64,000 nucleotides of DNA from Actinomycetota bacterium (GCA_028698215.1 JAQVDY010000007.1:6579-70578); one strand, 5' to 3'. Shown: positions 1 to 37,546, numbered from the stretch's first letter. The notes: a model not told the origin generated them from the letters alone. A program made the numbers and translations.

Positions 1-44
1 CACCGCTATTATTGACTCGGTAGATTTGGGAGGCGGGGACTGAA

Positions 45-329
45 ATGATGCTGGGTAAAGTAATAGGGAATGTGGTTTCTGTCATCAAGGATGAAAACTA
101 TAAGGGGTTAAAACTTATGGTAATCCAGGAAATGGATATGGATGGCGGCTATAAGCCTAATTTCGTAGTAGCGGCTGACCTTATCGGTGTGGGTATAGAC
201 GAAACGGTTATGGTGGCTAACGGTACTCCGGCCAGAGCTACTGAGGAAACCAAAAGCGTAGGCCTGGATTCCATTATAGTGGCTAAAATAGAAAAATTAA
301 TTTTTGAAGATAGGGAATTGAATTTATAA
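45..329 (+). CDS. Bacterial microcompartment vertex protein (BMC-P; EutN/CcmL/PduN family)
   Basis: 94 aa, typical size and composition (GxVxG..., hydrophobic beta-barrel core) of EutN/CcmL pentamer proteins; GGAGGCGGGG RBS upstream; directly followed by a BMC-H gene. Confidence 0.75.
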   Translation: MMLGKVIGNVVSVIKDENYKGLKLMVIQEMDMDGGYKPNFVVAADLIGVGIDETVMVANGTPARATEETKSVGLDSIIVAKIEKLIFEDRELNL

Positions 330-345
330 CAAGGGGTGATTTAGT

Positions 346-615
346 ATGGACGGCTTTGCCATTGGTTTAATTGAAACAAAAGGGCTGGTGGGGTCTATAG
401 AAGCAGCCGATGCCATGATAAAGGCAGCCAGTGTAGAACTTATGGGCCAGGTAAGGATTGGCGGCGGTTATGTTACAGTATTTATAAAAGGCGATGTGGG
501 TGCGGTTAAAGCCGCTATAGAAGCCGGAGCTGAAGCTGCTAAAAGGGTAGGAGAGCTTCTGTCTTCTCATGTGATACCCCGGCCTAACCAGGATTTGGAT
601 ATGATTTATCCATAA
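346..615 (+). CDS. BMC-H hexameric shell protein (PduA/EutM/CcmK family)
   Basis: 89 aa; canonical BMC-domain sequence [32 protein letters not shown]...[33 protein letters not shown]. Confidence 0.85.
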
Positions 616-619: not shown

Positions 620-3118
620 TTAGGGATTTACCCAAACTTTTATCTTCTGGCTAAGATTAGCTTTTTGCCCTCCAGAAGGTTGCTGGTCGTAGGTATAATT
701 TTGGGGCACCTGATCATTTTTTTCATAAATATACTCAATATTATTATACCCAGAATGTACTAATATATGGTTTGCCTGATCCCAAGGTAGATTTATGATA
801 TTTGGTACAGTAGGAAGGTTTTCTTGTAACTGCTTTATTGTTTCCCCAGGGTCTCCAGCTGGCACTTCTCCTGGGTTTACCCAAACCTTGATTAGTCTTA
901 TGGGTTCAATTTCCTCATCCCATAAAGGTTCTTGCCTGTGAACATAACCTGGAGGTACACCTCCAAAAACTTCTTCAATAAATTCTATATGAGTGTATCC
1001 GGCATCTCTCAAAATATTATTCGCCTGGTCCTTAGGCATTAGTGTTATATTAGGAAGTTTTAAACCCTCTGTAGTATCCAATGACCTGGGTTCCTGCCCG
1101 TAATGAAACTGCCTTAATTCGATTTTCTCGAAAGGGGTAAACCTGTTTGGCAGCACAATTGCACCGGTTTCAGGATTGTGGACTACCTGTACCTCTATTA
1201 AATCGTCTTCCGGTCTTACAAATTCCTCTGCAGGTAGTTTCTTGGTAGCTTCTTCCATAAACAAGTTCCAGATCATGGCCGGCAGGGTTCCACCCTGAAC
1301 CCTGGTGTCGTGTATTATTCCCATTTTTATATTTTCTTCAGGGTAGCCTATCCATACACAGGCTGCCAGGTTAGTAGTGAATCCGGTAAACCAGGCATTT
1401 TCCGCTTCCTGGGTGGTACCTGTTTTTCCTGCCACCGGCCTGTCTTCCAGGCGGGCCCGGGTACCGGTACCTCTCTGCACTGCCTGCTGCATGATTTCGA
1501 TAGCCCTGTAGGCATTGATAGCAGATATGGCTTGAACCGGTTGAGGCTGGTGCTCCTCTAGCACATTGCCCTCATTATCGGTAACCTTGGTTATGGCTAC
1601 CGGATCATTTCTAGCCCCATAATTGGCGATGGTGGCAAAGGAGCTGCATACCTCTAGTGGGGATACCCCGATGGTAAGGCCTCCCAGGCCAATAGCAGGA
1701 TAGGGCTCCAGGTCGGTAACGATACCCATCCTTTTAGCAACATCAACCATGCTGTAGGCACCAACCTTCATTATTAGCTGGGCATAAACCACGTTTACTG
1801 AGCTTATGGTGGCATCTATAATATTCATTTCATCGGTTTCGTATTTGGTTCCCATATAGTTGGAAACCTCCCAGGGCTCACTTCCTTCTATACCAAATAT
1901 TACCGGACCATTGGGGTTGAAAGTCATCAGCGGGCTTATGCCCTGTTCCAGCGCAGCCATCAGGGCAAAAACCTTGAAAGTGGATCCCGGCTGCCTTTTA
2001 GCCTGGGTGGCCAGGTTAAATTTCATTACTGAAAAGTCCTTGCCTCCCACCATGGCTTTGATATAACCGGTAGAGGGATCTATGGCTACCAATGCTGCTG
2101 CAGGGTCTTCGGGATCATACAATATTTCCTCTATGGCATCTTCAGCAGCTATCTGCATATCCGGCTCCAGGGTGGTGTAGATATCAAAACCCCCCTTAAA
2201 TACCCGGTTTACCCCATACTTTTCTATTAGCTGCTGTTTTACATATTCAACAAAATACATGGCAAAACCCTTTTTTGATTCCTCGGTAGGCCTATTCAGC
2301 ACTATGGGGGTATTGATAGCCTCCTGGTATTGCTGAGAGTCAATATAGCCCAACTCCATCATTTTGGATAAAACCACATTTCTCCTATCCAATACCCAGG
2401 CCTCTTCAATATAGGGGCTCTTGTTGGGATAGCGGAGCATGCCTGCTAATAGTGCTGCTTCAGGCAAGCTGAGATAATTTACATTTTTATTAAAATAAAC
2501 CTTGGAAGCAGCCTGTACCCCGTAAGCACCTTCACCGAAATAAACGGTGTTAAGATACATTTCCAGTACTTCTTCCTTGGAATAAATTTTTTCCAGCTGA
2601 TAGGCCAGTAACGCCTCTTTTATCTTACGGTCATAGGTTATTTCGTATTTTTCTTCCGGTATATAAAGGTTCCTGATAACCTGTTGGGTGATAGTGCTGG
2701 CTCCCTGGGCTATATCACCGGTTTGAAGGTTAATGATAAAAGCCCTGATTATGCCCTCAGGATCTACTCCCTTATGCTGATAATATCTTTCATCCTCTAT
2801 GGCTACTACCGCATTGATTAGGTTTTGGGGCATGCGTTCCAAATTAACTTCTTCCCTATTTTCTATCCCATGGAAAGTGGCAATAAGGGTTCCGTCCGCC
2901 GCATATATCTGGGAGGTCAAGGCAGCCTCTGCAGGGTTGTATTCTCCCAGGTCAGGCAAATCAGCCATGAAGCTTCCTATGATACCGGTCACTGCTACTG
3001 AAAGGCCGCTGAAAGCGGTTAAAAATAGGATGGTGGAAAGCAAAAACAAGGCAACCAGTACTATTAGTACTTTAACGCCAGCCCTGTTTTTCTTATGTTT
3101 TTTCCTTAATTTAGACAT
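620..3118 (-). CDS. Class A penicillin-binding protein (PBP1A-type bifunctional transglycosylase/transpeptidase) with C-terminal tandem PASTA-like repeats
   Basis: 832 aa; N-terminal KK-rich cytoplasmic tail plus TM anchor; GT51 motifs (EDxRYYxHxG, QQ..RNLY); transpeptidase SxxK (STFK), SSN (SSVN), KTGT motifs; two approx 70-aa C-terminal repeats ending KVWVNP. Confidence 0.9.
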   Translation of the reverse strand: MSKLRKKHKKNRAGVKVLIVLVALFLLSTILFLTAFSGLSVAVTGIIGSFMADLPDLGEYNPAEAALTSQIYAADGTLIATFHGIENREEVNLERMPQNLINAVVAIEDERYYQHKGVDPEGIIRAFIINLQTGDIAQGASTITQQVIRNLYIPEEKYEITYDRKIKEALLAYQLEKIYSKEEVLEMYLNTVYFGEGAYGVQAASKVYFNKNVNYLSLPEAALLAGMLRYPNKSPYIEEAWVLDRRNVVLSKMMELGYIDSQQYQEAINTPIVLNRPTEESKKGFAMYFVEYVKQQLIEKYGVNRVFKGGFDIYTTLEPDMQIAAEDAIEEILYDPEDPAAALVAIDPSTGYIKAMVGGKDFSVMKFNLATQAKRQPGSTFKVFALMAALEQGISPLMTFNPNGPVIFGIEGSEPWEVSNYMGTKYETDEMNIIDATISSVNVVYAQLIMKVGAYSMVDVAKRMGIVTDLEPYPAIGLGGLTIGVSPLEVCSSFATIANYGARNDPVAITKVTDNEGNVLEEHQPQPVQAISAINAYRAIEIMQQAVQRGTGTRARLEDRPVAGKTGTTQEAENAWFTGFTTNLAACVWIGYPEENIKMGIIHDTRVQGGTLPAMIWNLFMEEATKKLPAEEFVRPEDDLIEVQVVHNPETGAIVLPNRFTPFEKIELRQFHYGQEPRSLDTTEGLKLPNITLMPKDQANNILRDAGYTHIEFIEEVFGGVPPGYVHRQEPLWDEEIEPIRLIKVWVNPGEVPAGDPGETIKQLQENLPTVPNIINLPWDQANHILVHSGYNNIEYIYEKNDQVPQNYTYDQQPSGGQKANLSQKIKVWVNP

Positions 3119-3284: not shown

Positions 3285-4139
3285 ATGGTTTACATAAATA
3301 CTAAGGATATGCTGATTAAAGCCAGGAAAGAAAAATTTGTGGTGGGGGCTTTCAATATTGTCAACCACACCTCTATGGTGTCAGTAGCAGAAGCAGCCAT
3401 TGAAGAAAGGTCACCGGTAATTATTCAGACTTCCCAAAAAACAGTGGAAGCCTTGGGCTATAAGATGCTGGTGGATATGGCCAAAGACCTGGCCCAGGGA
3501 ACAGACGTTCCCATTTCCATGAACCTGGATCATGGGACCGATATGGATATTATTGAAAACTGTATTGAGCATGGCTGGAGCTCAATTATGGTAGACGGAT
3601 CCAGCCTGCCCTACCAGGAGAATATAGAAATGACTAAAAAGGTAGTGGAAATGGCCCACCAGAAAGGTATTACCGTGGAAGGTGAGCTGGGCCATATAGG
3701 GGGAACCGAGGAACAGGTTTCAGTAGACCAGGAGCATGTAATGTTAACTGATCCCCAAATGGCGGTAGATTTTCAGCAGAAGACCGGCATTGACAGCTTG
3801 GCCGTAGCCATTGGCACTGCCCACGGCCTGTACTCAGGAGAGCCCAGGCTGGATTATCAGCGCCTGGCCAAAATAATGGAGGTTACTGATTTTCCCATAG
3901 TAATTCACGGCTGCTCCGGTTTAAGCCAAGAAGTGCTGGCTAAAATCAGGACTTTCGGAGTATCTAAAATGAACATCTCCACCGAAATCAAGCATAAATA
4001 CATCGACTCCTGCGATTTATACATAAAAGAGCATCCCCATGAGTATGAGCCGGTGAAAAAAATAAACTTTGTAAAGGAAGAAGTAAAAAAACTGGTTAAG
4101 AAATATATTGGTATTTTTGGAAGCGCCGGTAAGGCCTAA
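3285..4139 (+). CDS. Class II ketose-bisphosphate aldolase (Fba/GatY/KbaY family)
   Basis: 284 aa; FVVGAFNI, NLDHG, GELGHIGG and IVIHGxSG motifs of class II FBP/tagatose-BP aldolases; AGGTGAG RBS. Confidence 0.85.
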   Translation: MVYINTKDMLIKARKEKFVVGAFNIVNHTSMVSVAEAAIEERSPVIIQTSQKTVEALGYKMLVDMAKDLAQGTDVPISMNLDHGTDMDIIENCIEHGWSSIMVDGSSLPYQENIEMTKKVVEMAHQKGITVEGELGHIGGTEEQVSVDQEHVMLTDPQMAVDFQQKTGIDSLAVAIGTAHGLYSGEPRLDYQRLAKIMEVTDFPIVIHGCSGLSQEVLAKIRTFGVSKMNISTEIKHKYIDSCDLYIKEHPHEYEPVKKINFVKEEVKKLVKKYIGIFGSAGKA

Positions 4140-4154
4140 CAGGGAGGGATAAAA

Positions 4155-5105
4155 ATTAACAGCTATAAACCAACTTATGAATGTGACCTTCACTGCCATA
4201 CCAACCGGTCAGATGGCAATGATACCCCCAGGCAGCTAATTGTCCTGGCAGCCGGCCTGGGCATGAGAGCCATAGGCATGGTGGATCATGATACCGGGCC
4301 TGTCCTTACCGTAGAAGAAGGGGGCAGCAAATTGGGTATTAAGGAGTTTGCTGCCAGCCGGGGCCTGGAGCTGGTGCTGGGTGATGAATTTTCCTGTGAC
4401 AGCCAGGTGGATGACGTTCACATTATCGGCTATGAGCTGGACTGGGATAGCCCAGCTTTCCTTAAGGAGGTAGAGCGTGCCAAGCAGAGCAAGGCTGATG
4501 CCTACCGGCAGCTATGTGAGGTGCTGACCGAAGAAGGCATGCCCTTAGACTACGGCCAGGACATATTAATATATACAGACCTGCAAGGGATTCAAAGGCA
4601 TAGAACGCCAGAGGAAGTGCAAAGAAAACATATATTTGAAGCTATGGCCAGAAAAGGCTATGCCGCTTCCTGGAGTGAAGCCAAACTTATGGTCAGGGAT
4701 AACCCCCGGCTGAATGTGCCCCGGAAAAAGGTCAGCCCCCTGGAGGCTATAAATATTATTAAAGGCGGCGGCGGCCTGGCGGTATTGGCCCACCCCTACC
4801 TTATAGACGAGCAGGTAGATTCTGAAATACTGGGCAGAGTAACCCGGCTAGAATACATTGATAAACTGATAGAAGCCGGCCTGGACGGCATGGAATCCTG
4901 CTATACTTATGACAAAACTACCTATAAGGGCACGCTCAGCCGCCAGCAGGTTCAGCAGGAGGTAGAAAGCAGGTATAAGGGTAAGGTAAGGTTTTTTACC
5001 GGAGGTTCAGATTACCACAATGATGCTAAAAAAGGGGCGGCTAACCCCAGGCTGATAGGAGAAGCAGGCATCAGCTACCGGCAGTTTAAATCTATTTTTG
5101 CCTAA
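4155..5105 (+). CDS. PHP-domain (polymerase/histidinol-phosphatase-like) phosphoesterase; apparent non-canonical ATT start
   Basis: In-frame DLHCHTNRSDG PHP motif lies upstream of the first ATG (4263). The frame is open from 4140 with no ATG/GTG/TTG. AGGGAGGG RBS at 4141-4148 is followed by ATT at 4155. Later motifs HII, LAHP, GGSDYH. Confidence 0.55.
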   Translation: MNSYKPTYECDLHCHTNRSDGNDTPRQLIVLAAGLGMRAIGMVDHDTGPVLTVEEGGSKLGIKEFAASRGLELVLGDEFSCDSQVDDVHIIGYELDWDSPAFLKEVERAKQSKADAYRQLCEVLTEEGMPLDYGQDILIYTDLQGIQRHRTPEEVQRKHIFEAMARKGYAASWSEAKLMVRDNPRLNVPRKKVSPLEAINIIKGGGGLAVLAHPYLIDEQVDSEILGRVTRLEYIDKLIEAGLDGMESCYTYDKTTYKGTLSRQQVQQEVESRYKGKVRFFTGGSDYHNDAKKGAANPRLIGEAGISYRQFKSIFA

Positions 5106-5386
5106 CCCTTATTAAGGTGTAGCGGCAGGGCATGTATTGGCCTTAACTTTAGCCGGCCAGGATTAAGCAAGGAAGGTTTAATAAAAATATGGCAGGTGCC
5201 GGAACTGTATTTTAATTTGATATAAACATTATTAAATAGTTAAAGCCCGGGTACAAATAGGACAAAACATAGTTGGCTATTAAGTTAAATAATGGTATTT
5301 TTATGTGAAGGGCTTTTAGGGTCCAGAGGCTAGGGGCCGCAGAAGTTTAAATAGAATGGACAAAATTAACGGAGCAAGGAAAAAAG

Positions 5387-6244
5387 ATGGTAAATTTAAC
5401 TAAACTCCAACTAATGGAGCTGCATGAAAAATCTTATCAGGCCAGAATCAATATACTGAAAATGATGAGATTTGGGGAAGGCCATATAGGAGGGGCCTTT
5501 TCCAGCCTGGACATCATGACCGTACTTTATAACCAGATATTAAGGCACAAACCGTCTAATCCCAAATGGGAAGACCGGGACCGGTTCATATTATCTGCCG
5601 GCCATAAATGCCTGGCCTTGTATGCCTGTTTGGCTGACCAGGGTTATTTTGATACTGATGTTTTATGGACCTATAATACTTTGGATACCAGGGTACCCAT
5701 GCATCCGGATGAAAAGGTTTTACCGGGAGTGGAGTTTCCCACCGGCTCTTTGGGGCACGGGCTTCCAGTGGCCAATGGAATGGCTTTAGCCGGCAGGCTG
5801 GATAAAAAGGATTACCGGGTGTTTGTAATTTTAGGCGATGGAGAATGTGCCGAGGGGAGCGTATGGGAGGCAGTTATGGCCGCAGGCCACCATCATCTGG
5901 ACAATGTAGTGGCCATAGTAGACCGTAACCGGCTGCAGGTAAACGGGAGAACCGAAGATATTATGGATACCTCTCCCTTTGAGGATAAGTTTAAGGCTTT
6001 TGGCTGGGAGGTAAAGACAATAAACGGGCATGATTTTCAGTCCATATACCAGGTCTTGTCCCAGGTGCCTTTCTGCAAAGGCAAGCCATCGGCCATTATT
6101 GCCGATACGGTAAAATGCAGGGGGCTGGACTTTGGAGAGGATAAATTTGAGTTTCACCACTGGCATTGCGAGCTGGATAAAATTGATGAAGCCATAGATG
6201 TGGTGGCCAAGAGAAAAAGAGAGGAGCAGGCTAAAATTGGATAA
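5387..6244 (+). CDS. Transketolase, N-terminal (TPP-binding) subunit of a split transketolase
   Basis: 285 aa; GHxG..S, GSLGHGLPVANGMALA, ILGDGECAEGSVWEA motifs. Confidence 0.85.
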   Translation: MVNLTKLQLMELHEKSYQARINILKMMRFGEGHIGGAFSSLDIMTVLYNQILRHKPSNPKWEDRDRFILSAGHKCLALYACLADQGYFDTDVLWTYNTLDTRVPMHPDEKVLPGVEFPTGSLGHGLPVANGMALAGRLDKKDYRVFVILGDGECAEGSVWEAVMAAGHHHLDNVVAIVDRNRLQVNGRTEDIMDTSPFEDKFKAFGWEVKTINGHDFQSIYQVLSQVPFCKGKPSAIIADTVKCRGLDFGEDKFEFHHWHCELDKIDEAIDVVAKRKREEQAKIG

Positions 6245-7187
6245 CAAGGAAACTATATATGAAAATCCCAGAAAGATAATTGCAGATGCCCTGGTGGAGC
6301 TGGGCCAGCAAAACAGTAGGGTTGTTTATGTGTCCTGCGACTCTTCTTTAGGGGCCTCGGGGGGTCCATTTAACCAGAATTTTCCGGAAAGGCATTTTGA
6401 GTTTGGAATACAGGAACAAAACGGCATGGGGGAAGCGGCAGGGTTGGCCATAAGCGGAAAGATCCCCTTTATAGCTGCTTATGTGCCTTTTGTGGCTTTC
6501 CGCTGTTTTGAACAAATCAGGGATGATGTATGCAAGACCAGATTAAACGTAAACATCATGGGCAATAACTGCGGTTTTTCCGTAGGGCCTTTGGGTCCCA
6601 CCCATGTGGTGCTGGAAGATATAGCGGTAATTGGCTCTTTGCCTAATATTACCATTATCTCTCCTGCTGACGGGCCCCAGTACAGGGAAGCTATCTTTAA
6701 GGCCGCACAACTGGAGGGACCGGTTTATTTGCGTGTTCACCGTGAAAAGGCCAGGCGTATCTATGGAGAGAATTACCAGATGCAGATAGGCAAGGGAGAA
6801 ATTTTGAAGCAGGGCAGTGATATTACGGTAGTAGCTACCTCCACCATGGTGGCCAATTGCCTGGATGCAGCGGAAGCCCTGAAGTCTTCAGGCATTGATG
6901 CTGAAGTGATAAACATATCCACCTTAAAGCCTATAGACAGGGAAATAATATTGGGGTCCAGCGCTAAAACCAAAAAGGTGGTTACGGTAGAAGAGCACAG
7001 TACCATAAACGGGTTGGGCAGCATAGTAGCCAACGTGCTGGCTGAATCCGGGCCTGCACCCATTAAAAAAATAGGTATAGAAGATGTTTTTGCGGTAGTA
7101 GGCCAATATCAGGAGCTGATAGAGTATTATGGCCTTACCGGGCCCAGCATTGCCCAGAAGATAGAAGAATTTTTAAATCCAAGATAG
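6237..7187 (+). CDS. Transketolase, C-terminal (pyrimidine-binding/C-terminal domain) subunit
   Basis: Track ORF begins at ATG 6198 (47-nt overlap with upstream gene). TTG at 6237 preceded by GAGGAGCAGG gives MDNKETIYENP..., a typical N-terminus, with an 8-nt overlap. Motifs FGIQEQN, GPTH, transketolase C-terminal domain. Confidence 0.8.
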   Translation: MDNKETIYENPRKIIADALVELGQQNSRVVYVSCDSSLGASGGPFNQNFPERHFEFGIQEQNGMGEAAGLAISGKIPFIAAYVPFVAFRCFEQIRDDVCKTRLNVNIMGNNCGFSVGPLGPTHVVLEDIAVIGSLPNITIISPADGPQYREAIFKAAQLEGPVYLRVHREKARRIYGENYQMQIGKGEILKQGSDITVVATSTMVANCLDAAEALKSSGIDAEVINISTLKPIDREIILGSSAKTKKVVTVEEHSTINGLGSIVANVLAESGPAPIKKIGIEDVFAVVGQYQELIEYYGLTGPSIAQKIEEFLNPR

Positions 7188-7196
7188 GAGGACCCA

Positions 7197-7619
7197 ATGA
7201 AAATTGCAATCGGTTGCGATATTAATGCCAATGACAGGATGCAGGACCTTGTCCAAATATTGGACCAGCAGCAGGTAGATTACAAGGTGTTTGAAGTAGA
7301 CGGGGATTACCCTGATGTAGCGGCGGAAGTAACCAAAGCGGTCCAGAACGGTAGCTATGACCGGGGCATATTGGTTTGCGGAACCGGTATAGGCATGGCC
7401 ATTTGCGCCAATAAATTTAAGGGAATCAGGGCTGCGGTCTGCCACGATATTTATTCTGCCCAGAGATCCATATTATCCAATGACTGCCAAATACTTACTA
7501 TGGGTTCTTTTATAGTGGGCACCAAGCTGGCCCAGGAGATACTTAAAGTTTGGCTGGCCATTGAAAGAACCGGGGGAACCGTGGATAAAGTTAAAAAAAT
7601 TGAACAGTTAGAGCAATAA
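7197..7619 (+). CDS. rpiB: Ribose-5-phosphate isomerase B / galactose-6-P isomerase family (RpiB/LacAB)
   Basis: 140 aa; MKIAIGCD..., CGTGIGMAI.ANK, GIRAA motifs. Confidence 0.85.
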   Translation: MKIAIGCDINANDRMQDLVQILDQQQVDYKVFEVDGDYPDVAAEVTKAVQNGSYDRGILVCGTGIGMAICANKFKGIRAAVCHDIYSAQRSILSNDCQILTMGSFIVGTKLAQEILKVWLAIERTGGTVDKVKKIEQLEQ

Positions 7620-7623
7620 GGAT

Positions 7624-8571
7624 ATGACTTACGATATCAAACTTATGGTAAAGGTAGCCAGCCTTTACTACCGGGAAGGTTTAACCCAGGAAGATATATC
7701 CAATAAACTGAAGATTTCCAAATACCAGGTTAACCGTATCCTAAAAAGAGCGGTAAACATAGGGGTAGTACAGATTAATATTATAGACCCTACCCGGGGG
7801 CTTTCCAGCCTGGAAGAAAAGCTGGAGAAAAAATTCGGCCTCAAACGGGCCATAGTGGTGGAAAATAATGGCTTGTCCGACATTGAGCTTAAAAACAAGA
7901 TGGGCCAGGCAGCAGCAAACTACCTGTTAGAAATCATAAAGGACGGGGATGTAATAGGGGTATCATGGGGCACCACCATCAATGAAGTAATTAACCATTT
8001 ACCTTCCAAGATAAATAAGGAGGTGGAAGTGGTGCAGATAACCGGCGGTATCCACCAGCTGTCGGTTGATTTAAACTGCCATGATATTGCCAGGAGGTTT
8101 GCGGCCAGGTTCGGGGTAAATCCCCACCTGCTGTACGCCCCGGCCATAGTGGATTCCCAGGAAAGCCATGATCTTTTCATAAACGAATCATCAATCAAGA
8201 AGACCACAGATTTCTTTGATAAAATAACCATAGCCCTGGTGGGTATAGGAGCCTTGTTCCCTAAAATGATATCCACACTGATAAAAACCGGGCATATACC
8301 GGCCGGGGATTTGGAGATGCTTAGGGAAGAAGGGGCCATAGGGGATGTTTTTTCACACTTTTTTGATATAGAGGGCCATATTTGTGACAGCAGCCTTTCC
8401 GGAAGGCTGATAGCCATGCCTGCCCATATGCTTCACCAGGTTCCCTATTCCATAGGAGTGGCAGGGGATAAACTAAAGGCCGATGCCATATATGGAGCGG
8501 TTAAGGGCAAGCTTATCAATATATTGATTACAGACAGTAAAGCTGCAGAGCTGGTGCTGAAGAAAAAGTAA
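7624..8571 (+). CDS. SorC/DeoR-family sugar(-phosphate)-binding transcriptional regulator
   Basis: 315 aa; N-terminal HTH (EDISNKLKISKYQVNRILKRA) plus C-terminal SorC sugar-binding domain (GVSWGTT, ITGGI). Confidence 0.8.
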   Translation: MTYDIKLMVKVASLYYREGLTQEDISNKLKISKYQVNRILKRAVNIGVVQINIIDPTRGLSSLEEKLEKKFGLKRAIVVENNGLSDIELKNKMGQAAANYLLEIIKDGDVIGVSWGTTINEVINHLPSKINKEVEVVQITGGIHQLSVDLNCHDIARRFAARFGVNPHLLYAPAIVDSQESHDLFINESSIKKTTDFFDKITIALVGIGALFPKMISTLIKTGHIPAGDLEMLREEGAIGDVFSHFFDIEGHICDSSLSGRLIAMPAHMLHQVPYSIGVAGDKLKADAIYGAVKGKLINILITDSKAAELVLKKK

Positions 8572-8613
8572 TATATGCCAAACAATTTAAATTTATATAG
8601 TTAGGGAGAAAGT

Positions 8614-9582
8614 ATGGCCAAGTTGTCCAAACAAGATAAACTCAATATGCTTAAAACCCTGCTCACTATCAGGAGGTTTGAAGAAAAGACCATCCAGCTT
8701 TACCAAACTGCCAAGATATGGGGCTACTTGCACCCTTATCTGGGCCAGGAAGCGGTAGCAGTGGGAGCCTGCCAGGCCTTGGACCAGGATGATTATATAG
8801 TGTCTACCCACCGGGGTCACGGCCACTGCATAGCCAAGGGAGGAGACCTAAACAAGATGATGGCGGAGCTGCTGGGAAAGAGTACGGGTTATTGCAAGGG
8901 ACGCGGTGGTTCCATGCATATAGCGGATACCGATTTGGGAATACTGGGAGCCAATGGTATCGTGGGGGGAGGTATACCTATTTCGGTAGGGGCAGGTTTC
9001 AGCTGCAAACTGGAGGGCCGGGCCAGGGTAGCGGTTTGCTTTTTTGGGGACGGGGCTGCCAATAACGGGGTATTCCATGAATCCTTGAATATGGCCTCTA
9101 TATTCAAATTACCGGTTATATACATTTGTGAAAACAATCTTTATGCCATTTCCATGTGTTCCCAGTTTTCAGTAGCCTGCGGGGATGTAGCTAACCGTGC
9201 TGCCTCTTATTCCATACCGGGAAAGGTAGTAGAAGGGGATGACCCGGAGCAGGTATTTGATTCAGTAAAGGAGGCGGTACAGGCAGCCAGGAAAGGCAAG
9301 GGACCCAGCCTGATCGAGGCTAAGACTTACCGGTTTACCGGGCATCATCCCAATGACCCGGCAGAATACAGGGAAAAAGAGGAAGCAGACTATTACAAGC
9401 TAAACAAGGATCCATTAAAGAATTATTCGAATCAATTAATTAAGGAAAAAGTTATAAGCAAAACCGCTTATGAAAACATGAACAGGCAAGTCCTTTCAGC
9501 GGTGGAAGAATCAGTAAAGTTTGCAGAAAGCAGCCCGGAGCCTGACCTGGATACTTTTTTGGAGGAAGTAAAGAATATCTAA
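8614..9582 (+). CDS. TPP-dependent 2-oxoacid/acetoin dehydrogenase E1 component, alpha subunit (AcoA/PdhA-like)
   Basis: 322 aa; HRGHGH, TPP-binding GDGA(x)NNG, FICENNLYAIS motifs. Confidence 0.8.
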   Translation: MAKLSKQDKLNMLKTLLTIRRFEEKTIQLYQTAKIWGYLHPYLGQEAVAVGACQALDQDDYIVSTHRGHGHCIAKGGDLNKMMAELLGKSTGYCKGRGGSMHIADTDLGILGANGIVGGGIPISVGAGFSCKLEGRARVAVCFFGDGAANNGVFHESLNMASIFKLPVIYICENNLYAISMCSQFSVACGDVANRAASYSIPGKVVEGDDPEQVFDSVKEAVQAARKGKGPSLIEAKTYRFTGHHPNDPAEYREKEEADYYKLNKDPLKNYSNQLIKEKVISKTAYENMNRQVLSAVEESVKFAESSPEPDLDTFLEEVKNI

Positions 9583-9616
9583 GGGTATTTGCAGTAAGAG
9601 ACGGGAAAGGAAAGTT

Positions 9617-10588
9617 ATGGCAAAAATTGAATACAGGGAAGCCTTAAGGCAAGCAATAATAGAAGAGATGGACCGGGACAGCAGGGTATTTCTAATAGGG
9701 GAAGACATAGGGGTGTATGGCGGTGCTTTCCGGGTATACAAGGGCCTTCTGGAAAAATATGGCCCGGACAGGGTAATAAATACCCCTATATCAGAAGCTG
9801 CAATCCTGGGTGCAGGCGTGGGGGCCGCCCTTACCGGCTACCGCCCTGTTTCAGAAATAATGTTTATAGATTTTACTACCCTGGCCATGGACCAGATCGT
9901 AAACCAGGCAGCAAAAATCAGGTATATGACCGGCGACTGCCTTAATGTCCCTTTGGTAATAAGGACCCAGGGAGGTGCGGGCAGGGGGGTTGCCGCCCAG
10001 CATTCCCAGAGCCTGGAGGCATGGTTTTACCATGTACCTGGACTAAAGGTGGTAATGCCTGCCACTCCTTATGATGCCAAGGGCTTGCTTAAAGCATCTA
10101 TCCGGGACAATAATCCGGTTATGTTTATAGAGCAGAAAATGATCTATTTAAACCAGGGAGAGGTTCCGGAGGAAGAGTACTTGATAGACCTGGGTAAGGC
10201 AGATATTAAAAGAGAGGGAAAAGATGTTACTATCTTTGCCTATTCGGCCATGGTGTTTGAAGCTTTGGCGGCTGCAAAAGAATTAGAAGAAGAGGGTATA
10301 AGCTGTGAGGTTTTTGACCCCCGGACCCTGGTGCCTTTGGATTTACAGGCTTTAGTGGACTCAGTTAAAAAAACCCATAGGCTGGTAGTGGTAAGTGAAG
10401 CCTGCCAGAGGGGAAGCATTGCTTCCGATGTCTGTGCCCGTGTAGTAGACCAGGCTTTTGACTGGTTGGATGCTCCAGTAAGGGTGGTAGCCGGGCTTAA
10501 TACCCCCATCCCCTATAATTCTGCCTTGGAGCAAGCTTCTATCCCCCATAAGGAAGACATAGCCAGGGCAGTAAGGCAATTGATTTAA
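9617..10588 (+). CDS. Dehydrogenase E1 component, beta subunit (AcoB/PdhB-like)
   Basis: 323 aa; transketolase-like pyrimidine-binding and C-terminal domains (GEDIGVYGGAF, NTPISEA, MVF...EEGISCEVFDPRTL). Confidence 0.85.
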   Translation: MAKIEYREALRQAIIEEMDRDSRVFLIGEDIGVYGGAFRVYKGLLEKYGPDRVINTPISEAAILGAGVGAALTGYRPVSEIMFIDFTTLAMDQIVNQAAKIRYMTGDCLNVPLVIRTQGGAGRGVAAQHSQSLEAWFYHVPGLKVVMPATPYDAKGLLKASIRDNNPVMFIEQKMIYLNQGEVPEEEYLIDLGKADIKREGKDVTIFAYSAMVFEALAAAKELEEEGISCEVFDPRTLVPLDLQALVDSVKKTHRLVVVSEACQRGSIASDVCARVVDQAFDWLDAPVRVVAGLNTPIPYNSALEQASIPHKEDIARAVRQLI

Positions 10589-10606
10589 ATTTTTTATTTA
10601 GGTATG

Positions 10607-10621
10607 ATTACAAATTGTAAT
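10607..10621. promoter_or_regulatory. Perfect 15-bp palindrome ATTACAAATTGTAAT between the E1-beta and transaldolase genes (candidate operator)
   Basis: Read directly; lies in a 58-bp intergenic gap immediately upstream of the GGAGG RBS of the transaldolase gene. Confidence 0.25.
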
Positions 10622-10646
10622 TTTTTAACAATTGGAGGTTTTAAAC

Positions 10647-11843
10647 ATGACAACATATGAAAAATCTGCTATGCAGCGACTGTCCGAGACCTCGGAGGAT
10701 ATGGAACTTTGGTGGGATTCTTCTCCGCTGGTATTTGCAAAATGGGCTGCGGGCGAGCTGGAAAATGCGCCTGCAGATAAAAAAGATCTGGCTGCAGCCA
10801 GGTTAAAGAAACTTTATGATAAAGATAATCCCCAGGATACCCTGTTTGACGGAGTTACCACCAACCCCAGGCTTACCAGAACTGTCCTGGACCTTATTCC
10901 CGAACAGGTTGACCCCATAGTGGATAAAATAATTGAGGAAAACCCGGCTAAATCAAATTATGAGCTGGCCTGGGAAGTATATAAAGCTATTACTGCAGAG
11001 GGCACCAAACTGTTCATGCCCTTATTTGAAAAATCAGGATTTAAAAAAGGTTATGTAAGCGCCCAGGTTGACCCCAGGCTGGTTACCGATGTACGGGAGA
11101 TGCTAAGGCAGGCTTTGGTTCTTAAAAAGATATCCCCCAATATCATGGTTAAATGCCCCGGATCCAAAGAGGGCATTTACGTGATAGAGATTTTAAGCTC
11201 GCTGGGAATACCTACCAATGCTACCCTTGTATTTGATGTTCCCCAGGTGGTACAGGTAGCTGAAGCAGTAAAAAGAGGTTACCAGAGAGGACAAGAATGG
11301 GGTGTTGACTATAGCCAGTGGAGGTCAGTTATAACTATCATGATAGGCAGGTTTGAAGCCAGGGAAGCCTATACTGAAAGCGCCAGGAAAGCAGGTATTG
11401 AGCTTACTGAAGAACTGCAGAGATGGAGCGGCGTAGCTATTGCCAAGAAAGCTCACCAGATATTAAATGATCCGGCCAGGGGATACTACAGCAAGCTTCT
11501 GCTTTGCTCTTCCAGGGTGGGGCCCAAGCCTGATGAAGTTATACATATCGAAAAGGTAGCCGGCGGCAATATGGTTTATACCATCAACCCGGAAATGGTT
11601 AGTGACTTTATGAGGATATGCGACCAGAAAGAGCTGACTTGCCAGATGGATGATCCGGTACCAGAAGAAATAATGAGTAAATTACTCCAAGTACCATATT
11701 TTGTAGCAGGCTATGAGGAAGACGGAATAGCAATGGAAGACTTCATCGATCAAGCTGCTTTCCAGTATACCGCGAAGGAATTTGCAGGCTCTATGCAGGA
11801 AATAGAGGAATATGTGCAAAAAAGAAAAGACGCTTTAAAGTAA
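10647..11843 (+). CDS. Transaldolase-family protein (long form)
   Basis: Start set at ATG 10647, 8 nt after GGAGG; the track TTG at 10632 overlaps the RBS. GVTTNPRL and VKCPGSKEG....NATLVF correspond to transaldolase TTNPSL and Schiff-base Lys motifs. Confidence 0.75.
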   Translation: MTTYEKSAMQRLSETSEDMELWWDSSPLVFAKWAAGELENAPADKKDLAAARLKKLYDKDNPQDTLFDGVTTNPRLTRTVLDLIPEQVDPIVDKIIEENPAKSNYELAWEVYKAITAEGTKLFMPLFEKSGFKKGYVSAQVDPRLVTDVREMLRQALVLKKISPNIMVKCPGSKEGIYVIEILSSLGIPTNATLVFDVPQVVQVAEAVKRGYQRGQEWGVDYSQWRSVITIMIGRFEAREAYTESARKAGIELTEELQRWSGVAIAKKAHQILNDPARGYYSKLLLCSSRVGPKPDEVIHIEKVAGGNMVYTINPEMVSDFMRICDQKELTCQMDDPVPEEIMSKLLQVPYFVAGYEEDGIAMEDFIDQAAFQYTAKEFAGSMQEIEEYVQKRKDALK

Positions 11844-11860
11844 AGTCTTAAAAAAGCAAT

Positions 11861-11900
11861 AAGGCCATGCTAATTAGATAAGCATGGCCTTATTTTTTTC
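11861..11900 (+). terminator. Rho-independent terminator after the transaldolase gene
   Basis: AAGGCCATGCT-(9-nt loop)-AGCATGGCCTT followed by ATTTTTTTC. Confidence 0.7.
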
Positions 11901-12011
11901 CTGCCCTAGCCTTAGCTGCCTCTAGCCCCTTTTAAATTATTGGAAACTGTATTAATCTTTAATAATACTTATGCTATTAATTTTTATTATAATACTATCT
12001 TAGGGGTATTT

Positions 12012-13484
12012 ATGAGCGGTAATAATTATTTGGTTTTTGATTTCGGGGCCAGTAATGGAAGGGCTGCAGTATTTGATTATGACGGCAGGAAATTTGAAAT
12101 GGAAGTCACTCACCGTTTTGATAACCGCCCCGTATTTGCTGCCGGTACCATGTACTGGGACATACTGAGCCTTTATGAAGAGCTAAAGGCAGGAATACAG
12201 AAATCAGCATCCAGATATAATAATATAAAATCCATGGGCCTGGATGCCTGGGGAGCCGATTTTGGATTTTTGGATAAAAACGGAAAACTGGTATCTAATC
12301 CAGTGCATTACCGGGACCAGCAGAGGAATCAAGACAGCAGCAAATTGCTTAAGCTAATTGACGCCTTTCATCTCTTTGAATTAGCAGGGTCAGAAGTCAG
12401 CCCCATCTTTGACCTGTTCCAGCTCTTTTCCTTTAGCTTAAACCAGTCACCCGAAATTGAGTGCGGCCGGGTGTATTTAACCATTCCTGATATTTTTAAT
12501 TATTTTCTAACCGGCAAAACTTGCAATGAATGGACCAGGATTACCACTACTATCATGTACAATCAGGTAGAAAAAAAATGGGAAAACAAAATATTGGAGG
12601 CAGTAGGGCTGCCTGCGGACCGGTTTGCCCCCATCATTAAGCCGGGACAAAAGATTGGTAAAATTTCTGGCTCAGTCAGCAGCCTGTTAGGGATAAAGCC
12701 TATTGAAGTAGTGGCCCCGGTTACCCACGATACCCCGTCTGCCGTAGCAGGAATTCCGGTGGACAGTAACCAGGAATGGGCTTTCTTAAGCCTGGGAACC
12801 TGGGCTATTCTAGGTAAGGAAACCTCTCAGCCCATTATAAGCAGGGAAGTCTTTGAGTCAGGATATTCCAATGAAGGAGGGGCTGAAGACAGTAACCTGT
12901 TTATCAAGAATATTACCGGTTTGTGGATTATACAGCAGTGCAGGGAAAAGTGGAACCAGGATGCAGGGCAGAAGATTGCCTGGGACAGCATTATGGAAAT
13001 GGCCCAGCAAAGTGAAGCTTTTGCCGGGTTTATAGATGTGGAAAATCCTGTCTTTGACCAGATTACTTCAGATATGCCCCAGGTGGTAAGGGATCATTGC
13101 CAGGGCTGCCAGCCGGAAAGCATTGGCCAGGTTGCCAGGCTGTTTTATGAAGGGCTGGTCTTAAAGTTTAAGTATGAGGTGTCTGCTTTGGAAAAACTGG
13201 GCGGTAAAAAACTGCAATTGCTTCATTTGATAGGAGGGGGCACCAAGGACCGCCTGCTTTGCCAGTGGACTGCTGATGCCACCGGGATTCCGGTAATAGC
13301 AGGGCCTACGGAAACCACTTCCGTGGGCAATTTTTTAATGCAGCTTAAAGCAGCAGGAGAAATATCCAGCCTTAAGCAGGGGAGGGAAATATCCAGAAAT
13401 TCTTCCCAGATTGTAAATTATTATCCCCAGGACACCGATATCTGGGATCAAGCATATCAAAAATATTTACACATATTTGGCTGA
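12012..13484 (+). CDS. FGGY-family carbohydrate kinase (rhamnulokinase/fuculokinase-like)
   Basis: Start placed at ATG 12012 (MSGNNYLVFDFGASNGRAAVF, as in RhaB N-termini). FGGY N and C domain motifs (DFGASNGR, GGGTKD). Upstream 24 codons of the track ORF lie in an AT-rich promoter region. Confidence 0.75.
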   Translation: MSGNNYLVFDFGASNGRAAVFDYDGRKFEMEVTHRFDNRPVFAAGTMYWDILSLYEELKAGIQKSASRYNNIKSMGLDAWGADFGFLDKNGKLVSNPVHYRDQQRNQDSSKLLKLIDAFHLFELAGSEVSPIFDLFQLFSFSLNQSPEIECGRVYLTIPDIFNYFLTGKTCNEWTRITTTIMYNQVEKKWENKILEAVGLPADRFAPIIKPGQKIGKISGSVSSLLGIKPIEVVAPVTHDTPSAVAGIPVDSNQEWAFLSLGTWAILGKETSQPIISREVFESGYSNEGGAEDSNLFIKNITGLWIIQQCREKWNQDAGQKIAWDSIMEMAQQSEAFAGFIDVENPVFDQITSDMPQVVRDHCQGCQPESIGQVARLFYEGLVLKFKYEVSALEKLGGKKLQLLHLIGGGTKDRLLCQWTADATGIPVIAGPTETTSVGNFLMQLKAAGEISSLKQGREISRNSSQIVNYYPQDTDIWDQAYQKYLHIFG

Positions 13485-16956: not shown

Positions 16957-17781
16957 ATGGAAGAAGATATTAAGAAAAAATTGCAGCAGGCGGCCAAAGC
17001 CATACGAATCAATATCATAGATATGCTCTGCCAGGCTGGCTCCGGCCATCCCGGGGGAGCATTGTCCATGTCTGATGTATTTGCTTATCTTTATTTTAGC
17101 GGAGTATTAAACATCGATCCGGCCCAGCCCCGCAAAAAAGACAGGGACCGGGTAGTGCTATCCAAGGGGCATGCCTGCCCAGTACTTTATTCCACCCTGG
17201 CTGAAAAGGGCTATTTTGATAAGTCTCACCTGGGGACACTGCGAAAATTTGGCAGCATACTCCAAGGCCATCCTGACATGAATAAAACTCCCGGGGTTGA
17301 TATGAGTACCGGCTCGCTGGGTCAGGGCCTGTCCTGTGCGGTGGGCATGGCTTTAGGGGCTAAGCTGGACCAGCAGAATTTAAGGGTATTTGCCATAGTG
17401 GGCGACGGTGAATGCGAAGAAGGCCAGATTTGGGAAGCAGCCATGGCGGCAGCCCATTACCGGCTGGATAACCTTACAGTGGTAGTGGATAAAAATGGCC
17501 TGCAGATTGATGGTTTTACCAAGGACATAATGAGCAGCGAGCCTTTGGCAGAAAAGTGGAGGGCTTTTGGCTGGGAGACATTAGAAATAGATGGACATGA
17601 TTTTGACCAAATCGATATGGCGGTCAAAAAGGCGCAAAATACAAAGGGCAGGCCAACTGTTTTAGTGGCTACCACTGTAAAGGGCAAGGGAGTGGATTTT
17701 ATGGAAGGTATCTGTGACTGGCACGGCCAAGCTCCCACACCAGAGCAAAAAGAGAAAGCAATAGAATGTTTGAACCAATAA
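16957..17781 (+). CDS. Transketolase N-terminal subunit (second copy)
   Basis: 274 aa; same motifs as the 5387 gene (GHPGG, GSLGQGL, VGDGECEEGQIWEA). Confidence 0.85.
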   Translation: MEEDIKKKLQQAAKAIRINIIDMLCQAGSGHPGGALSMSDVFAYLYFSGVLNIDPAQPRKKDRDRVVLSKGHACPVLYSTLAEKGYFDKSHLGTLRKFGSILQGHPDMNKTPGVDMSTGSLGQGLSCAVGMALGAKLDQQNLRVFAIVGDGECEEGQIWEAAMAAAHYRLDNLTVVVDKNGLQIDGFTKDIMSSEPLAEKWRAFGWETLEIDGHDFDQIDMAVKKAQNTKGRPTVLVATTVKGKGVDFMEGICDWHGQAPTPEQKEKAIECLNQ

Positions 17782-17815
17782 TAAATATATTAAACTTAAA
17801 TTTTAAGGAGTGGGC

Positions 17816-18784
17816 ATGATTCCAGATAAAATAAAAAAGATACTGGCCACTGAAGATAAAAAGGTGGCTACCAGGGCGGCATATGGTAAGAAGCTGGCTG
17901 AATTAGGACAGGTAAATGAGGATATAGTAGTTCTGGATTGTGATTTATCTAAATCTACCAAAACCAATATTTTTGCTTCCAAGTTTCCGAAAAGATTCTT
18001 TAATTTCGGTATAGCAGAGTCTAATATGATGAGTGCAGCTGCCGGCCTGGCCACCATGGGTAAAATACCTTTTGCTTCCACCTTTGGGGTTTTTGCATCC
18101 AAAAGGGCAGCAGACCAAGTAAGCATATCTGTAGCTTATCCCCGGCTTAATGTAAAGATTTGTGCTACCCATACCGGTATAACTGTAGGTGAGGATGGGG
18201 CTACCCACCAGGCCATAGAAGATGTGGCTATTATGAGGTCCATACCTAATATAGCAGTTATCTCTCCGGCCGATGCTACGGAAACCGAAAAAGCCCTGGA
18301 AGCTGTACTGAAAATAGACGGGCCTTGTTATGTGAGGCTGTGCCGGGGTTCTGCTCCTGTAATATTCAATGATTCCTACCAGTTTGAGCTGGGAAAGGGA
18401 GTAAAAATTTATGAAGGCGATGCTGCTACCATTATTGCTTCCGGGTACACTACCCATATAGCGCTGGAAGCAGCTAAAGAGCTGGAAGGGCAGGCAATAG
18501 AGGTGGAAGTTATAAATATGGGCTCCATTAAACCCATTGACCAAGAACTGATAATAGAAAGCGCTAAAAAAACCGGTTTGGTAATAACAGTAGAAGACCA
18601 TAATGTGATTGGCGGCCTGGGCAGTGCAGTATGTGAAGTTTTAGCACAGAGTCAGCCTACCAAGGTAATAAGGCTGGGGGTACAGGACAAATTCGGAGCT
18701 TCGGGCACTCCCCAGGAACTGATCCAGGCTTATGGGTTTGACAAGGAAAGCATTATAAAGACAGTAAAGGACAATATTGGCTAA
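17816..18784 (+). CDS. Transketolase C-terminal subunit (second copy)
   Basis: Start ATG 17816, 5 nt after AAGGAG; the track GTG 17810 sits inside the RBS. FGIAESNM, GATHQ, C-terminal domain. Confidence 0.85.
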   Translation: MIPDKIKKILATEDKKVATRAAYGKKLAELGQVNEDIVVLDCDLSKSTKTNIFASKFPKRFFNFGIAESNMMSAAAGLATMGKIPFASTFGVFASKRAADQVSISVAYPRLNVKICATHTGITVGEDGATHQAIEDVAIMRSIPNIAVISPADATETEKALEAVLKIDGPCYVRLCRGSAPVIFNDSYQFELGKGVKIYEGDAATIIASGYTTHIALEAAKELEGQAIEVEVINMGSIKPIDQELIIESAKKTGLVITVEDHNVIGGLGSAVCEVLAQSQPTKVIRLGVQDKFGASGTPQELIQAYGFDKESIIKTVKDNIG

Positions 18785-35914: not shown

Positions 35915-36556
35915 ATGGAAGACAGGATGCCCTTATTAGGAGAAATATTTCCCGAAATGGAAGTAGTAACCACCCATGGAAAGCTTAAGCTGCCTATTGA
36001 TTATGCTGGAAAATGGTTTATTTTGTTTAGCCATCCCGCTGATTTTACACCGGTATGCACTACTGAATTCGTTGCTTTCCAGAAAAGGTATGACCAGTTC
36101 AGGAAATTTAATTGCGAATTAATCGGATTAAGCATAGACCAGGTTTTTTCCCATATTAAATGGGTGCAGTGGATAAAAGAAAATCTTGATGTTGAAATCA
36201 AGTTTCCAATAATTGCTGATGATGCCGGTGCGGTGTCTCAAAAACTGGGTTTTATCCATCCGGGTAAAGGGACCAATACAGTTAGGGCGGTAATGATAGT
36301 AGACCCTAATGCCAGGATAAGGGCAATGCTCTATTACCCCCAGGAGTTAGGCAGAAATATGGATGAAATTTTAAGGATGATAGAAGCATTCCAGGTAGCA
36401 GAGAAAAACGGAGTGGCCATGCCTGCCAACTGGCCTAATAATGAAATAATAAAAGATGAAGTTATAATACCGCCCCCTACCGATGAAAGGGCAATAGCAG
36501 ATAGGATGAAAAAATATGATTGCTTTGACTGGTGGTTCTGTCATAAAAAATTATAG
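35915..36556 (+). CDS. Peroxiredoxin (Prx6/1-Cys type)
   Basis: 213 aa; FTPVCTTE peroxidatic Cys motif; AAAGGAGGAG RBS. Confidence 0.85.
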
Positions 36557-36565
36557 GAGGTAAAT

Positions 36566-36940
36566 ATGGCTGAAAAAATGCAAATTTATAAATGTGAAGT
36601 ATGCGGCAACATAGTAGAAGTGCTTCATGGGGGAAAGGGAGAGCTGGTATGCTGTAATGAGCCCATGAAACTGTTTAAGGAAAATACGGTAGATGCAGCT
36701 AAGGAAAAACATGTTCCCGTTATAAAAAGAGATGGTGATATGGTAAAAGTCAAGGTAGGGAGCGTGGACCATCCCATGGAAGAAAAACATTATATTGAAT
36801 GGATTCAGATAGTGGATGGAGATGTGGCGTACCGTAAGTTTCTTAAGCCGGGTGATGCGCCGGAGGCAGAATTTTCCGTAAGCAGTAAAGATATTTACGC
36901 AAGGGAGTATTGTAATATTCATGGATTGTGGAAAGGATAA
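36566..36940 (+). CDS. dfx: Desulfoferrodoxin (2Fe superoxide reductase)
   Basis: 124 aa; N-terminal desulforedoxin CxxC...CC (YKCEVCGN....CCNEPM) and C-terminal SOR domain (KHVPV, H..WI). Confidence 0.85.
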
Positions 36941-36943
36941 AAA

Positions 36944-37456: not shown

Positions 37457-37492
37457 TAATGGTTTTAAAAAAAATATAAAAAGTTATATATT

Positions 37493-37526: not shown

Positions 37527-37546
37527 CAAGCTAACAGGAGGCAATA

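Follow-up and report, generated by a model that had tools for sequence, protein, structure and literature searches.

Only 12 pentamers of the vertex protein BMC-P are needed to close the shell of a bacterial microcompartment (BMC), and the reason for multiple BMC-P paralogs is stated to be unknown (PMC8217296, PMC11585597). The same studies describe BMC-P genes as single or as triplets, the latter in loci of the sugar-phosphate-utilising (SPU), HO, MIC, ACI, MUF and FRAG types. The consolidated MIC3 locus, with 2 + 3 BMC-P genes, has a total of five that is called 'unusual' in its catalog, and the seven BMC-P genes of Melioribacter roseus, distributed over five loci, were the maximum in 2014. 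A satellite locus is defined as containing one shell family only (Axen 2014), and a main locus as containing at least one hexameric shell protein (BMC-H) and at least one BMC-P (Sutter 2021). In the α-carboxysome, CsoS4A and CsoS4B are adjacent, always co-occurring BMC-P proteins, and their co-expression leads to heteropentamers in vitro (PMC11606499). Here we describe a shell locus at the left edge of a 64,000-nucleotide stretch of DNA from an Actinomycetota bacterium (GCA_028698215.1 JAQVDY010000007.1:6579-70578; the window), whose first 615 positions belong to an operon with five BMC-P genes.

The preliminary description of the window had recognized a BMC-P gene and a canonical BMC-H gene at this edge and proposed that the locus continues to the left. 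We confirmed both genes as open reading frames (ORFs) with full-model matches to PF03319 and PF00936 (Table 1), and the window indeed opens with the end of another BMC-P gene. The region beyond the edge was viewed over 10 kb upstream, in near-identical public assemblies (99.6-99.9% identity to the window). The longest contig with identical proteins (JGI 3300001682 SAHD_10000192, 131,870 bp) aligns with the window from position 36,675 with 22 mismatches over 10,329 bp, indicating that the window is a near-identical assembly of the same population held in a different record. In this contig, and in nine others wherever their reach suffices, four further PF03319 genes (Q1 to Q4, encoding 90, 89, 98 and 92 residues) are found immediately 5' of the BMC-P gene of the window, which we designated Q5. 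The gene order is Q1-Q2-Q3-Q4-Q5-BMC-H, with gaps of 2, -4, 1, 1 and 16 nt in SAHD_10000192. In the locus numbered L001 (L numbers designate loci throughout), the window starts at position 9957 and Q4, a PF03319 protein of 92 residues, is encoded at 9721-9999. Window positions 1-615 are the 3' third of an enzyme-free, six-gene shell operon of approximately 1.7 kb including BMC-H. A GGGAGG sequence located inside the end of Q4 points to translational coupling of Q5 to Q4, and the tight, partly overlapping ORFs would be expected to produce the Q proteins and BMC-H in roughly equal amounts.

The core of the BMC locus had been expected upstream. This was borne out for shell paralogs, in the form of the four BMC-P genes, but not for the enzymes, which lie on other contigs: in the 10 kb upstream of the window, which contain about 13 ORFs, there was no aldehyde dehydrogenase (AldDH), PduL, signature enzyme or further BMC-domain gene. 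The additional BMC-H or BMC-T genes anticipated there were thus absent from these 10 kb, where BMC-P genes are the only shell genes. A gene-by-gene check of the rest of the 64-kb window identified no DERA, AldDH, phosphotransacylase (PTAC) or other BMC genes. In the lineage of the window, a 240-bp AT-rich spacer precedes Q1, and beyond it follow, in order, a GltX-type tRNA synthetase gene (minus strand), an acetate kinase gene, IscS/NifU/TusA genes, a ParE/Phd pair and a gene for a lectin/DUF4214 protein. Scanning the surroundings of the operon for promoters and terminators gave no more hits than shuffled sequence did, and an Rfam scan of the operon and its leader gave no match.

The primary structures of the two window proteins were examined. 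Q5 matched PF03319 (EutN_CcmL) over model positions 1-82 of 83 (E 1.8e-20, 73.6 bits, cutoff 25). Its alignments to solved pentameric vertex proteins, namely the BMC-P of Haliangium ochraceum (HO) (5V74, E 9e-14), 6OWF (4.5e-13) and CcmL (2QW7, 2.5e-12), covered the full domain, spanning residues 1-83 to 1-92. An AlphaFold2 monomer model of Q5, built on a shallow alignment of 17 orthologues, was all-beta with a mean pLDDT of 52.8, too poor for use. The BMC-H protein matched PF00936 as a single domain over model positions 1-75 of 75 (E 4.5e-30, 103.9 bits, cutoff 24.5), and gave full-domain matches to HO BMC-H, EutM and PduA (E 1e-28 to 1e-57). NCBIfam assigned the two proteins to CcmL/EutN and EutM/CsoS1, respectively, at the family level and below equivalog cutoffs. 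The motifs standard for BMC-H, the edge motifs D-A-M-x-K-A-A-[KN] and P-R-P-H and the pore loop G-G-G/G-S-G, are recognizable in the window protein, which has PRPN; both edge motifs vary in the last position from the KAAN and PRPH of its counterpart in the main BMC locus of this genome, described below. The window protein is 80% identical to that 91-residue counterpart (P0076), with signature differences, and appears to be a lineage-specific paralog of it. Identical proteins were present on 14 (Q5) and 12 (BMC-H) independent public contigs. The dN/dS values among orthologues, 0.03-0.18 for Q5 and 0.07-0.08 for BMC-H, indicated purifying selection. On the other side of BMC-H, a PBP1A gene (620-3118, minus strand) is convergent with it at a gap of 4 nt.

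To survey conservation of the quintet, loci from 13 genomes that represent GTDB species were pooled with those from about 40 metagenome contigs, giving 54 loci in approximately 16 sequence clades. The order Q1-Q2-Q3-Q4-Q5 was kept in all 31 loci that have enough upstream DNA, with median intergenic gaps of 7, 5, 0 and -4 nt (the last, between Q4 and Q5, over 49 loci). More distant relatives of Q5 (56-64% identity) were encoded in the same five-gene array, in unrelated neighbourhoods and without BMC-H. Positional orthologues were 41-64% identical, against 19-38% between paralogs, and each of Q1 to Q5 was monophyletic with bootstrap values of 97-100% (100% for the Q5 clade). All five displayed dN/dS values of 0.03-0.24 (unsaturated pairs), and each has its own conserved signature in addition to the family motifs that all retain (the N-terminal motif, a GxGxGE-like motif and the C-terminal I-x-A-K/I-D). 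The five Q paralogs are ancient and non-redundant. Q4 was sister to M1 of the main locus (97% bootstrap) and Q5 to M2 (55%). When a Q5 profile was run against 1.84 billion representatives, two proteins scored above 110 bits, followed by generic BMC-P proteins at 85 bits or less, a drop which implies that Q5 is a narrow lineage-specific subfamily.

Concerning BMC-H, the subclade of the window keeps the synteny AckA-GltX / quintet / PBP1A-sugar block, and within this otherwise identical arrangement the 89-residue BMC-H is present in L001, L023, L026, L027 and L037 but absent from L024 and L025. In L025, Q5 ends 16 nt before the PBP1A stop codon. The absence from these two loci despite the kept synteny indicates that BMC-H is a patchy addition to the quintet, and the conserved unit is the BMC-P quintet rather than the quintet with BMC-H. 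At the other end, a BMC-domain gene was found directly 5' of Q1 in 1 of 27 loci. No core BMC enzymes were present in the flanks of the pooled quintet loci. As to other neighbours, a FucI-like isomerase gene is inserted, co-oriented, just 5' of Q1 in two close relatives, L023 (5590-6804) and L024 (267-1196), and ParE/Phd toxin-antitoxin pairs occur near the quintet in two unrelated neighbourhoods (L001 2699-3284 and L017 10298-10883), in L017 directly 3' of Q5.

Identical and related proteins carry the source labels 'Actinomycetota bacterium' and 'Candidatus Humimicrobiaceae bacterium', and of the 13 GTDB species representatives in which a Q5 orthologue was present, all but one, labelled just 'bacterium', are Actinomycetota metagenome-assembled genomes (MAGs). 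The host is an uncultured, anaerobic, Humimicrobiia-like Actinomycetota bacterium. As far as the MAG data allow, the genome of the window harbours at least three BMC loci: a MIC4-like main locus (A), the quintet operon (B), and a locus with a tailed aldolase and a BMC-H (C). Added to the four copies of the main locus, the quintet gives a genome at least nine BMC-P genes.

Leaving orthologues aside, the proteins most closely related to the window BMC-H (75-80% identity, 90-92 residues) are encoded in locus A (L019), a complete metabolosome locus. Its genes are, in order, two BMC-P genes, a BlaI-like gene, DeoR, two more BMC-P genes, genes for a PduS/RnfC-like protein and a 191-residue PduT-like BMC-T, a class II aldolase (PF00596), BMC-H, a PduL-type PTAC (PF06130), AldDH, a 123-residue BMC protein, a 182-residue BMC-T, LarA and a GlcD-like dehydrogenase. 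The AldDH scored 522 bits on NF011927, the model of the acylating EutE/PduP type. By eye rather than with a hidden Markov model, we noticed amphipathic ends resembling encapsulation peptides (EPs) at the aldolase's C-terminus and at the N-termini of PTAC and AldDH. An acylating AldDH with an EP, a PduL-type PTAC and an RnfC/PduS-like protein, all of which had been predicted upstream of the window, therefore exist in the same genome, at a different place. The AldDH with its N-terminal EP, the PTAC, the PF00596 aldolase, the PduS and PduT-type BMC-T proteins and a BMC-P triplet (plus one) correspond to MIC4. No acetate kinase (PF00871) was found within 10 kb on either side of the L019 BMC-H, and no DERA (PF01791) in L019. 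An acetate kinase gene close to the quintet was considered as a MIC4 component that may have been displaced; it runs convergent to GltX and is not part of the operon. This gene (L001 5902-7161) lies two genes, 1.7 kb, upstream of the quintet and is syntenic in L023 and L026. Wood-Ljungdahl genes adjoin locus A (FTHFS, FolD, CdhD and RACo in L019/L022).

The assignment of the three loci to one genome is based on several lines of evidence. One NCBI accession series contains the tailed aldolase (MDD3776384), the main-locus BMC-H (MDD3776576.1) and Q5 and BMC-H of the window (MDD3776652.1/MDD3776653.1). Metagenome 3300001682 holds all three loci, on SAHD_10000131 (C), SAHD_10000597 (A) and SAHD_10000192 (B). 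Locus A and the window locus are found together in the same sequencing runs, and a second MAG shows the same pattern (MGM0365609, MGM0366656, MGM0366993).

When flanking ORFs were clustered across the clades of quintet loci, two proteins alone recurred as neighbours, one of the DHDPS family (PF00701) with 378-388 residues and one of the YhcH/DUF386 family. They occur in three arrangements: divergent and upstream of the quintet in the L015 clade, directly downstream in the L049 clade, where the DUF386 ORF overlaps the end of Q5, and directly upstream in the L052 clade, 5 nt 5' of Q1. The PF00701 protein, which has 378-398 residues in the loci of Table 1 and flanks the quintet in three to four clades, carries a C-terminal extension of about 90 residues. 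In this extension a linker is followed by the conserved motif EKK[FY][DS]DCxxCGMC, then by a linker of variable sequence and by an amphipathic helix that is again conserved, exemplified by DIESIITETVKRIK. This tail resembles the EPs and Cys-rich tails described for several uncharacterised BMC types. The tailed aldolase family is common among Actinomycetota and Humimicrobiaceae MAGs. In locus C, genes for GntR, a FucI-like isomerase, a non-acylating AldDH (490 residues) and a 2-hydroxyacid dehydrogenase come before the aldolase (MDD3776384.1 in the MAG of the window), and a gene for an 87-residue BMC-H stands immediately 3' of it. In L051, a BMC-H 79% identical to that of locus C is encoded directly 5' of Q1. 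Judged from its tail and its neighbours, the DHDPS-family protein is a candidate for a new BMC signature enzyme, which would act as an aldehyde-generating cargo. The rearranged, recurrent adjacency ties the quintet to BMC-specific parts, which argues against a role independent of BMCs.

Table 1. Features at the left edge of the window and positions of the tailed aldolase and locus C in related loci.
Feature	Position	Strand	Remarks
3' end of Q4 (BMC-P paralog)	window 1..43	+	last 13 codons and TGA stop codon at 41-43; truncated by the window edge
Shine-Dalgarno-like GGGAGG	window 28..33	+	11 nt 5' of the Q5 start codon, within the end of Q4; read from the sequence
Q5, BMC-P (EutN/CcmL vertex protein family), 94 aa	window 45..329	+	PF03319; fifth gene of the quintet
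Shine-Dalgarno-like AAGGGGTGA	window 331..339	+	precedes the BMC-H start codon; read from the sequence
BMC-H, hexamer shell protein, 89 aa	window 346..615	+	PF00936; sixth and last gene of the operon
Tailed PF00701 class I aldolase	L015 7473-8639	-	
Tailed PF00701 class I aldolase	L049 10816-11949		
Tailed PF00701 class I aldolase	L052 7334-8485		
Tailed PF00701 class I aldolase	L118 10001-11185		
Locus C	L118 (JGI 3300001682 SAHD_10000131) 5271-11467		set among tRNA synthetase genes

Taken together, the quintet operon is probably the shell part of a multi-locus BMC system in Actinomycetota that carry a MIC4-like locus. In such a system BMC-H would tile the facets and the Q proteins would cap the vertices of one or more shells. 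The shells would enclose the EP-tagged aldolases, which may split sugar-derived substrates into a C3 product (dihydroxyacetone phosphate or pyruvate) and an aldehyde, and the acylating AldDH and PTAC would then convert the aldehyde to an acyl-phosphate. Several points weigh against this proposal. BMC-H is encoded directly 3' of Q5 in just 5 of the 54 loci, the other 49 having no adjacent BMC-H. The main locus already owns four BMC-P genes and would have no evident need of five more. The vertex position of the Q proteins is inferred. The upstream genes were read from assemblies nearly identical to the window (see above) and not from its own record. The claim of a single genome is founded on MAG binning, accession proximity and co-occurrence in samples, and the GC contents of the three loci differ (38.7, 43.6 and 46.6%).

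With respect to the vertex itself, it is conceivable, though we regard it as rather unlikely, that Q1 to Q5 are the five subunits, one copy each, of an obligate ordered heteropentamer, forming an asymmetric vertex cap with differing edges or central pore. This would account for the number five, for the fact that no paralog is ever lost, and for their arrangement in one translationally coupled operon, and the CsoS4A/CsoS4B heteropentamers provide a partial precedent. On the other hand, sets of three paralogs elsewhere and the four paralogs of the main locus count against it, and the number of paralogs need not equal the number of subunits. If it were correct, no earlier case of a natural BMC vertex that is obligately hetero-oligomeric would be known, and the question of multiple BMC-P paralogs would have a concrete answer.

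Other explanations of the locus were weighed. The preliminary description had likened it, together with the sugar-phosphate enzymes downstream, to SPU and Atribacteria-type loci; the two shell genes would then be the right edge of a contiguous locus with its core just upstream and its pathway running into the sugar-phosphate block. RpiB, a class II fructose-bisphosphate-type aldolase, transketolases, a SorC/DeoR regulator and a rhamnulokinase-like kinase are indeed encoded 2.7-13 kb downstream, and the locus shares with all SPU loci the presence of three or more BMC-P paralogs, but such a set (five paralogs here) is not specific to SPU. The signature enzyme DERA (PF01791) was found neither in the window, nor in the 10 kb upstream, nor in L019, the aldolases of the genome being of the PF00596 and PF00701 types, and AldDH (PF00171) and PTAC are lacking from the window and the 10 kb upstream. 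GltX, AckA and IscS/NifU lie upstream of the BMC-P genes instead. RpiB (PF02502, 7197-7619) is 6.6 kb away, past the convergent PBP1A gene that separates the operon from the sugar block, and its association with the quintet is absent outside the subclade of the window, as is that of the whole block; in every other clade the quintet has neighbours of another kind. The family models cover RpiB and the aldolase over their entire length, leaving no extension. For these reasons (convergent PBP1A, no extensions, synteny in one subclade) the sugar-phosphate block was rejected as cargo and as part of the BMC locus. The host is an Actinomycetota bacterium and not a member of the Atribacteria. We thus consider an SPU-type locus extremely improbable.

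Closer to the evidence is a possibility that we hold tentatively, namely that the quintet, with BMC-H where present, is the shell set of a second, fragmented BMC whose signature enzyme is the tailed aldolase of locus C, splitting a 2-keto-3-deoxy sugar acid into pyruvate and an aldehyde. The tailed aldolase with YhcH/DUF386 is the sole recurrent neighbour of the quintet, in three arrangements that include overlapping and co-oriented ones, a BMC-H of the locus-C type stands directly 5' of Q1 in L051, and a full shell set, four BMC-P genes included, already exists in the main locus. In L015, genes of a non-phosphorylative sugar-acid pathway adjoin (a sugar-acid dehydratase, a rhamnose-dehydrogenase-like short-chain dehydrogenase/reductase and an ABC transporter), and BMCs of the FRAG type, whose shell genes are dispersed, are already known as a category. 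However, the AldDH of locus C is of the non-acylating BADH/AldA type with no obvious EP, so that a metabolosome would lack its core unless it used that of locus A as well. Neither an acylating AldDH nor a PTAC was present in any quintet locus, and the EP-like helix of the aldolase is similar to the one on the class II aldolase of the main locus, as would fit a single shell common to both. A role unrelated to shells, for example as an OB-fold-like oligomer acting alone with the window BMC-H as a chance neighbour, would be in line with the predominance of quintet loci that have no adjacent BMC-H, with the lack of adjacent core enzymes in any of them, with mostly housekeeping neighbourhoods, and with hints in the literature that BMC-P multiplicity reflects an additional role. 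Yet six loci have a BMC-domain gene immediately next to the quintet and in the same orientation, on one side or the other; the aldolase with the EP-like tail recurs beside it; and two MAGs contain full BMC loci together with the quintet. In addition, Q4 and Q5 are sisters of main-locus BMC-P genes and the Q paralogs keep the family motifs, and we judge such a role very unlikely. The proposal that the quintet contributes to a multi-locus BMC system remains the one we favour.

Concerning the rest of the window, the sugar-phosphate block (3285-13484) is dense and stands under a SorC/DeoR-type regulator. It encodes a class II ketose-bisphosphate aldolase, a PHP-like phosphatase without a Pfam match, a split transketolase, RpiB, a thiamine pyrophosphate enzyme pair resembling E1 alpha/beta, a long protein similar to transaldolase and an FGGY kinase similar to rhamnulokinase. 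This kinase could feed the class II aldolase of the main locus, which is of the fuculose/rhamnulose-phosphate type. A second split-transketolase pair, followed by a 504-residue ORF (18777-20291) without any Pfam match, is located at 16957-20291. The region 43902-49952 encodes a complete Rnf complex (ApbE, RnfC, D, G, E, A, B). We had considered these genes (43.9-50 kb) as BMC-type RnfC and rejected this, as they form a complete RnfCDGEAB and ApbE membrane complex. The Rnf genes and the Wood-Ljungdahl genes near the main BMC locus suggest an acetogen-like energy metabolism. An oxygen-defence cluster (35915-38722) comprises peroxiredoxin, desulfoferrodoxin, a ferritin-like protein and a flavodiiron-type protein (Lactamase_B and ODP domains). 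Two PolX-like genes (pol-beta HhH/thumb or palm domain with a PHP domain; 56353-58077, minus strand, and 61143-62888, plus strand) lie within 6.5 kb, with genes for a DUF763 protein, an Rrf2 regulator and PCMT between them. At 23343-25031, B12-binding domains and GGDEF are combined in one protein, a possible cobalamin- or light-responsive diguanylate cyclase.

A fixed array of five BMC-P paralogs is unusual and apparently undescribed. We found no description of a conserved five-paralog BMC-P array in the literature on BMC-P paralogs and Humimicrobiia microcompartments, nor of a tailed DHDPS aldolase as BMC cargo in the literature on pfam00701 and BMCs. The lineage is the most extreme and cleanest multi-BMC-P case found, and its total of at least nine BMC-P genes per genome is above the numbers that two BMC catalogs single out as unusual. 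The operon of only about 1.7 kb is small enough for direct synthesis and expression, by which the alternatives of hetero- and homopentamers and vertex specialisation become testable. As a candidate cargo, the tailed aldolase suggests that sugar acids are broken down inside compartments in anaerobic, deep-branching Actinomycetota. For annotation, the window teaches that BMC shell genes beside sugar-phosphate enzymes need not be an SPU locus.

Among described systems, MIC4 corresponds to the main locus of this genome in enzymes and shell set, but here acetate kinase lies outside the main locus, and the window operon itself is without any MIC4 enzyme. In Supplementary Data 2 of Sutter et al. 2021, MIC4 lists Actinobacteria hosts, and the Actinobacteria MAG ADurb.Bin346 is filed as MIC4. 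Among the matches listed for this MAG in the BMC-P tree of the catalog are the MIC4 'main' proteins BWY60_00004/00005 and one 'sat' protein, BWY60_00574; BWY60_00570-573 and 00575 were not found among those listed matches. FRAG BMCs have shell genes spread over several loci, mostly at a distance from the enzymes, and a BMC-P triplet; the present genome has three loci and a quintet remote from the enzymes, yet its main locus is well organised, unlike typical FRAG. The quintet behaves as a satellite in that its shell genes lack enzymes (none within about 13 ORFs on either side) and lie distal from the main locus. By the formal definitions, the window version, having both BMC-P and BMC-H, would be scored as a main or candidate locus, and its 49 BMC-P-only relatives among the 54 loci as satellites. 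It shares with the cyanobacterial CcmK3/K4 satellites the location of shell-only genes away from the main locus, which are thought to tune the shell under separate regulation, but those are BMC-H pairs and the quintet operon is mainly BMC-P. CsoS4A/CsoS4B are two paralogs of an anabolic BMC, and their heteromers are still unproven both in function and in presence within the shell. As in the BMC-P triplets, several anciently diverged paralogs of different major clades stand side by side with a function that is unexplained, and Q4 and Q5 pair with main-locus paralogs, as expected of members of different clades. Unlike the triplets, the quintet has five members, stands alone in invariant order, usually without BMC-H or enzyme, and occurs in addition to four main-locus BMC-P genes. 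Finally, whereas the BMC-P genes of MIC3 and M. roseus are split among loci, partly with enzymes, the quintet is a single translationally coupled operon kept over approximately 16 clades.

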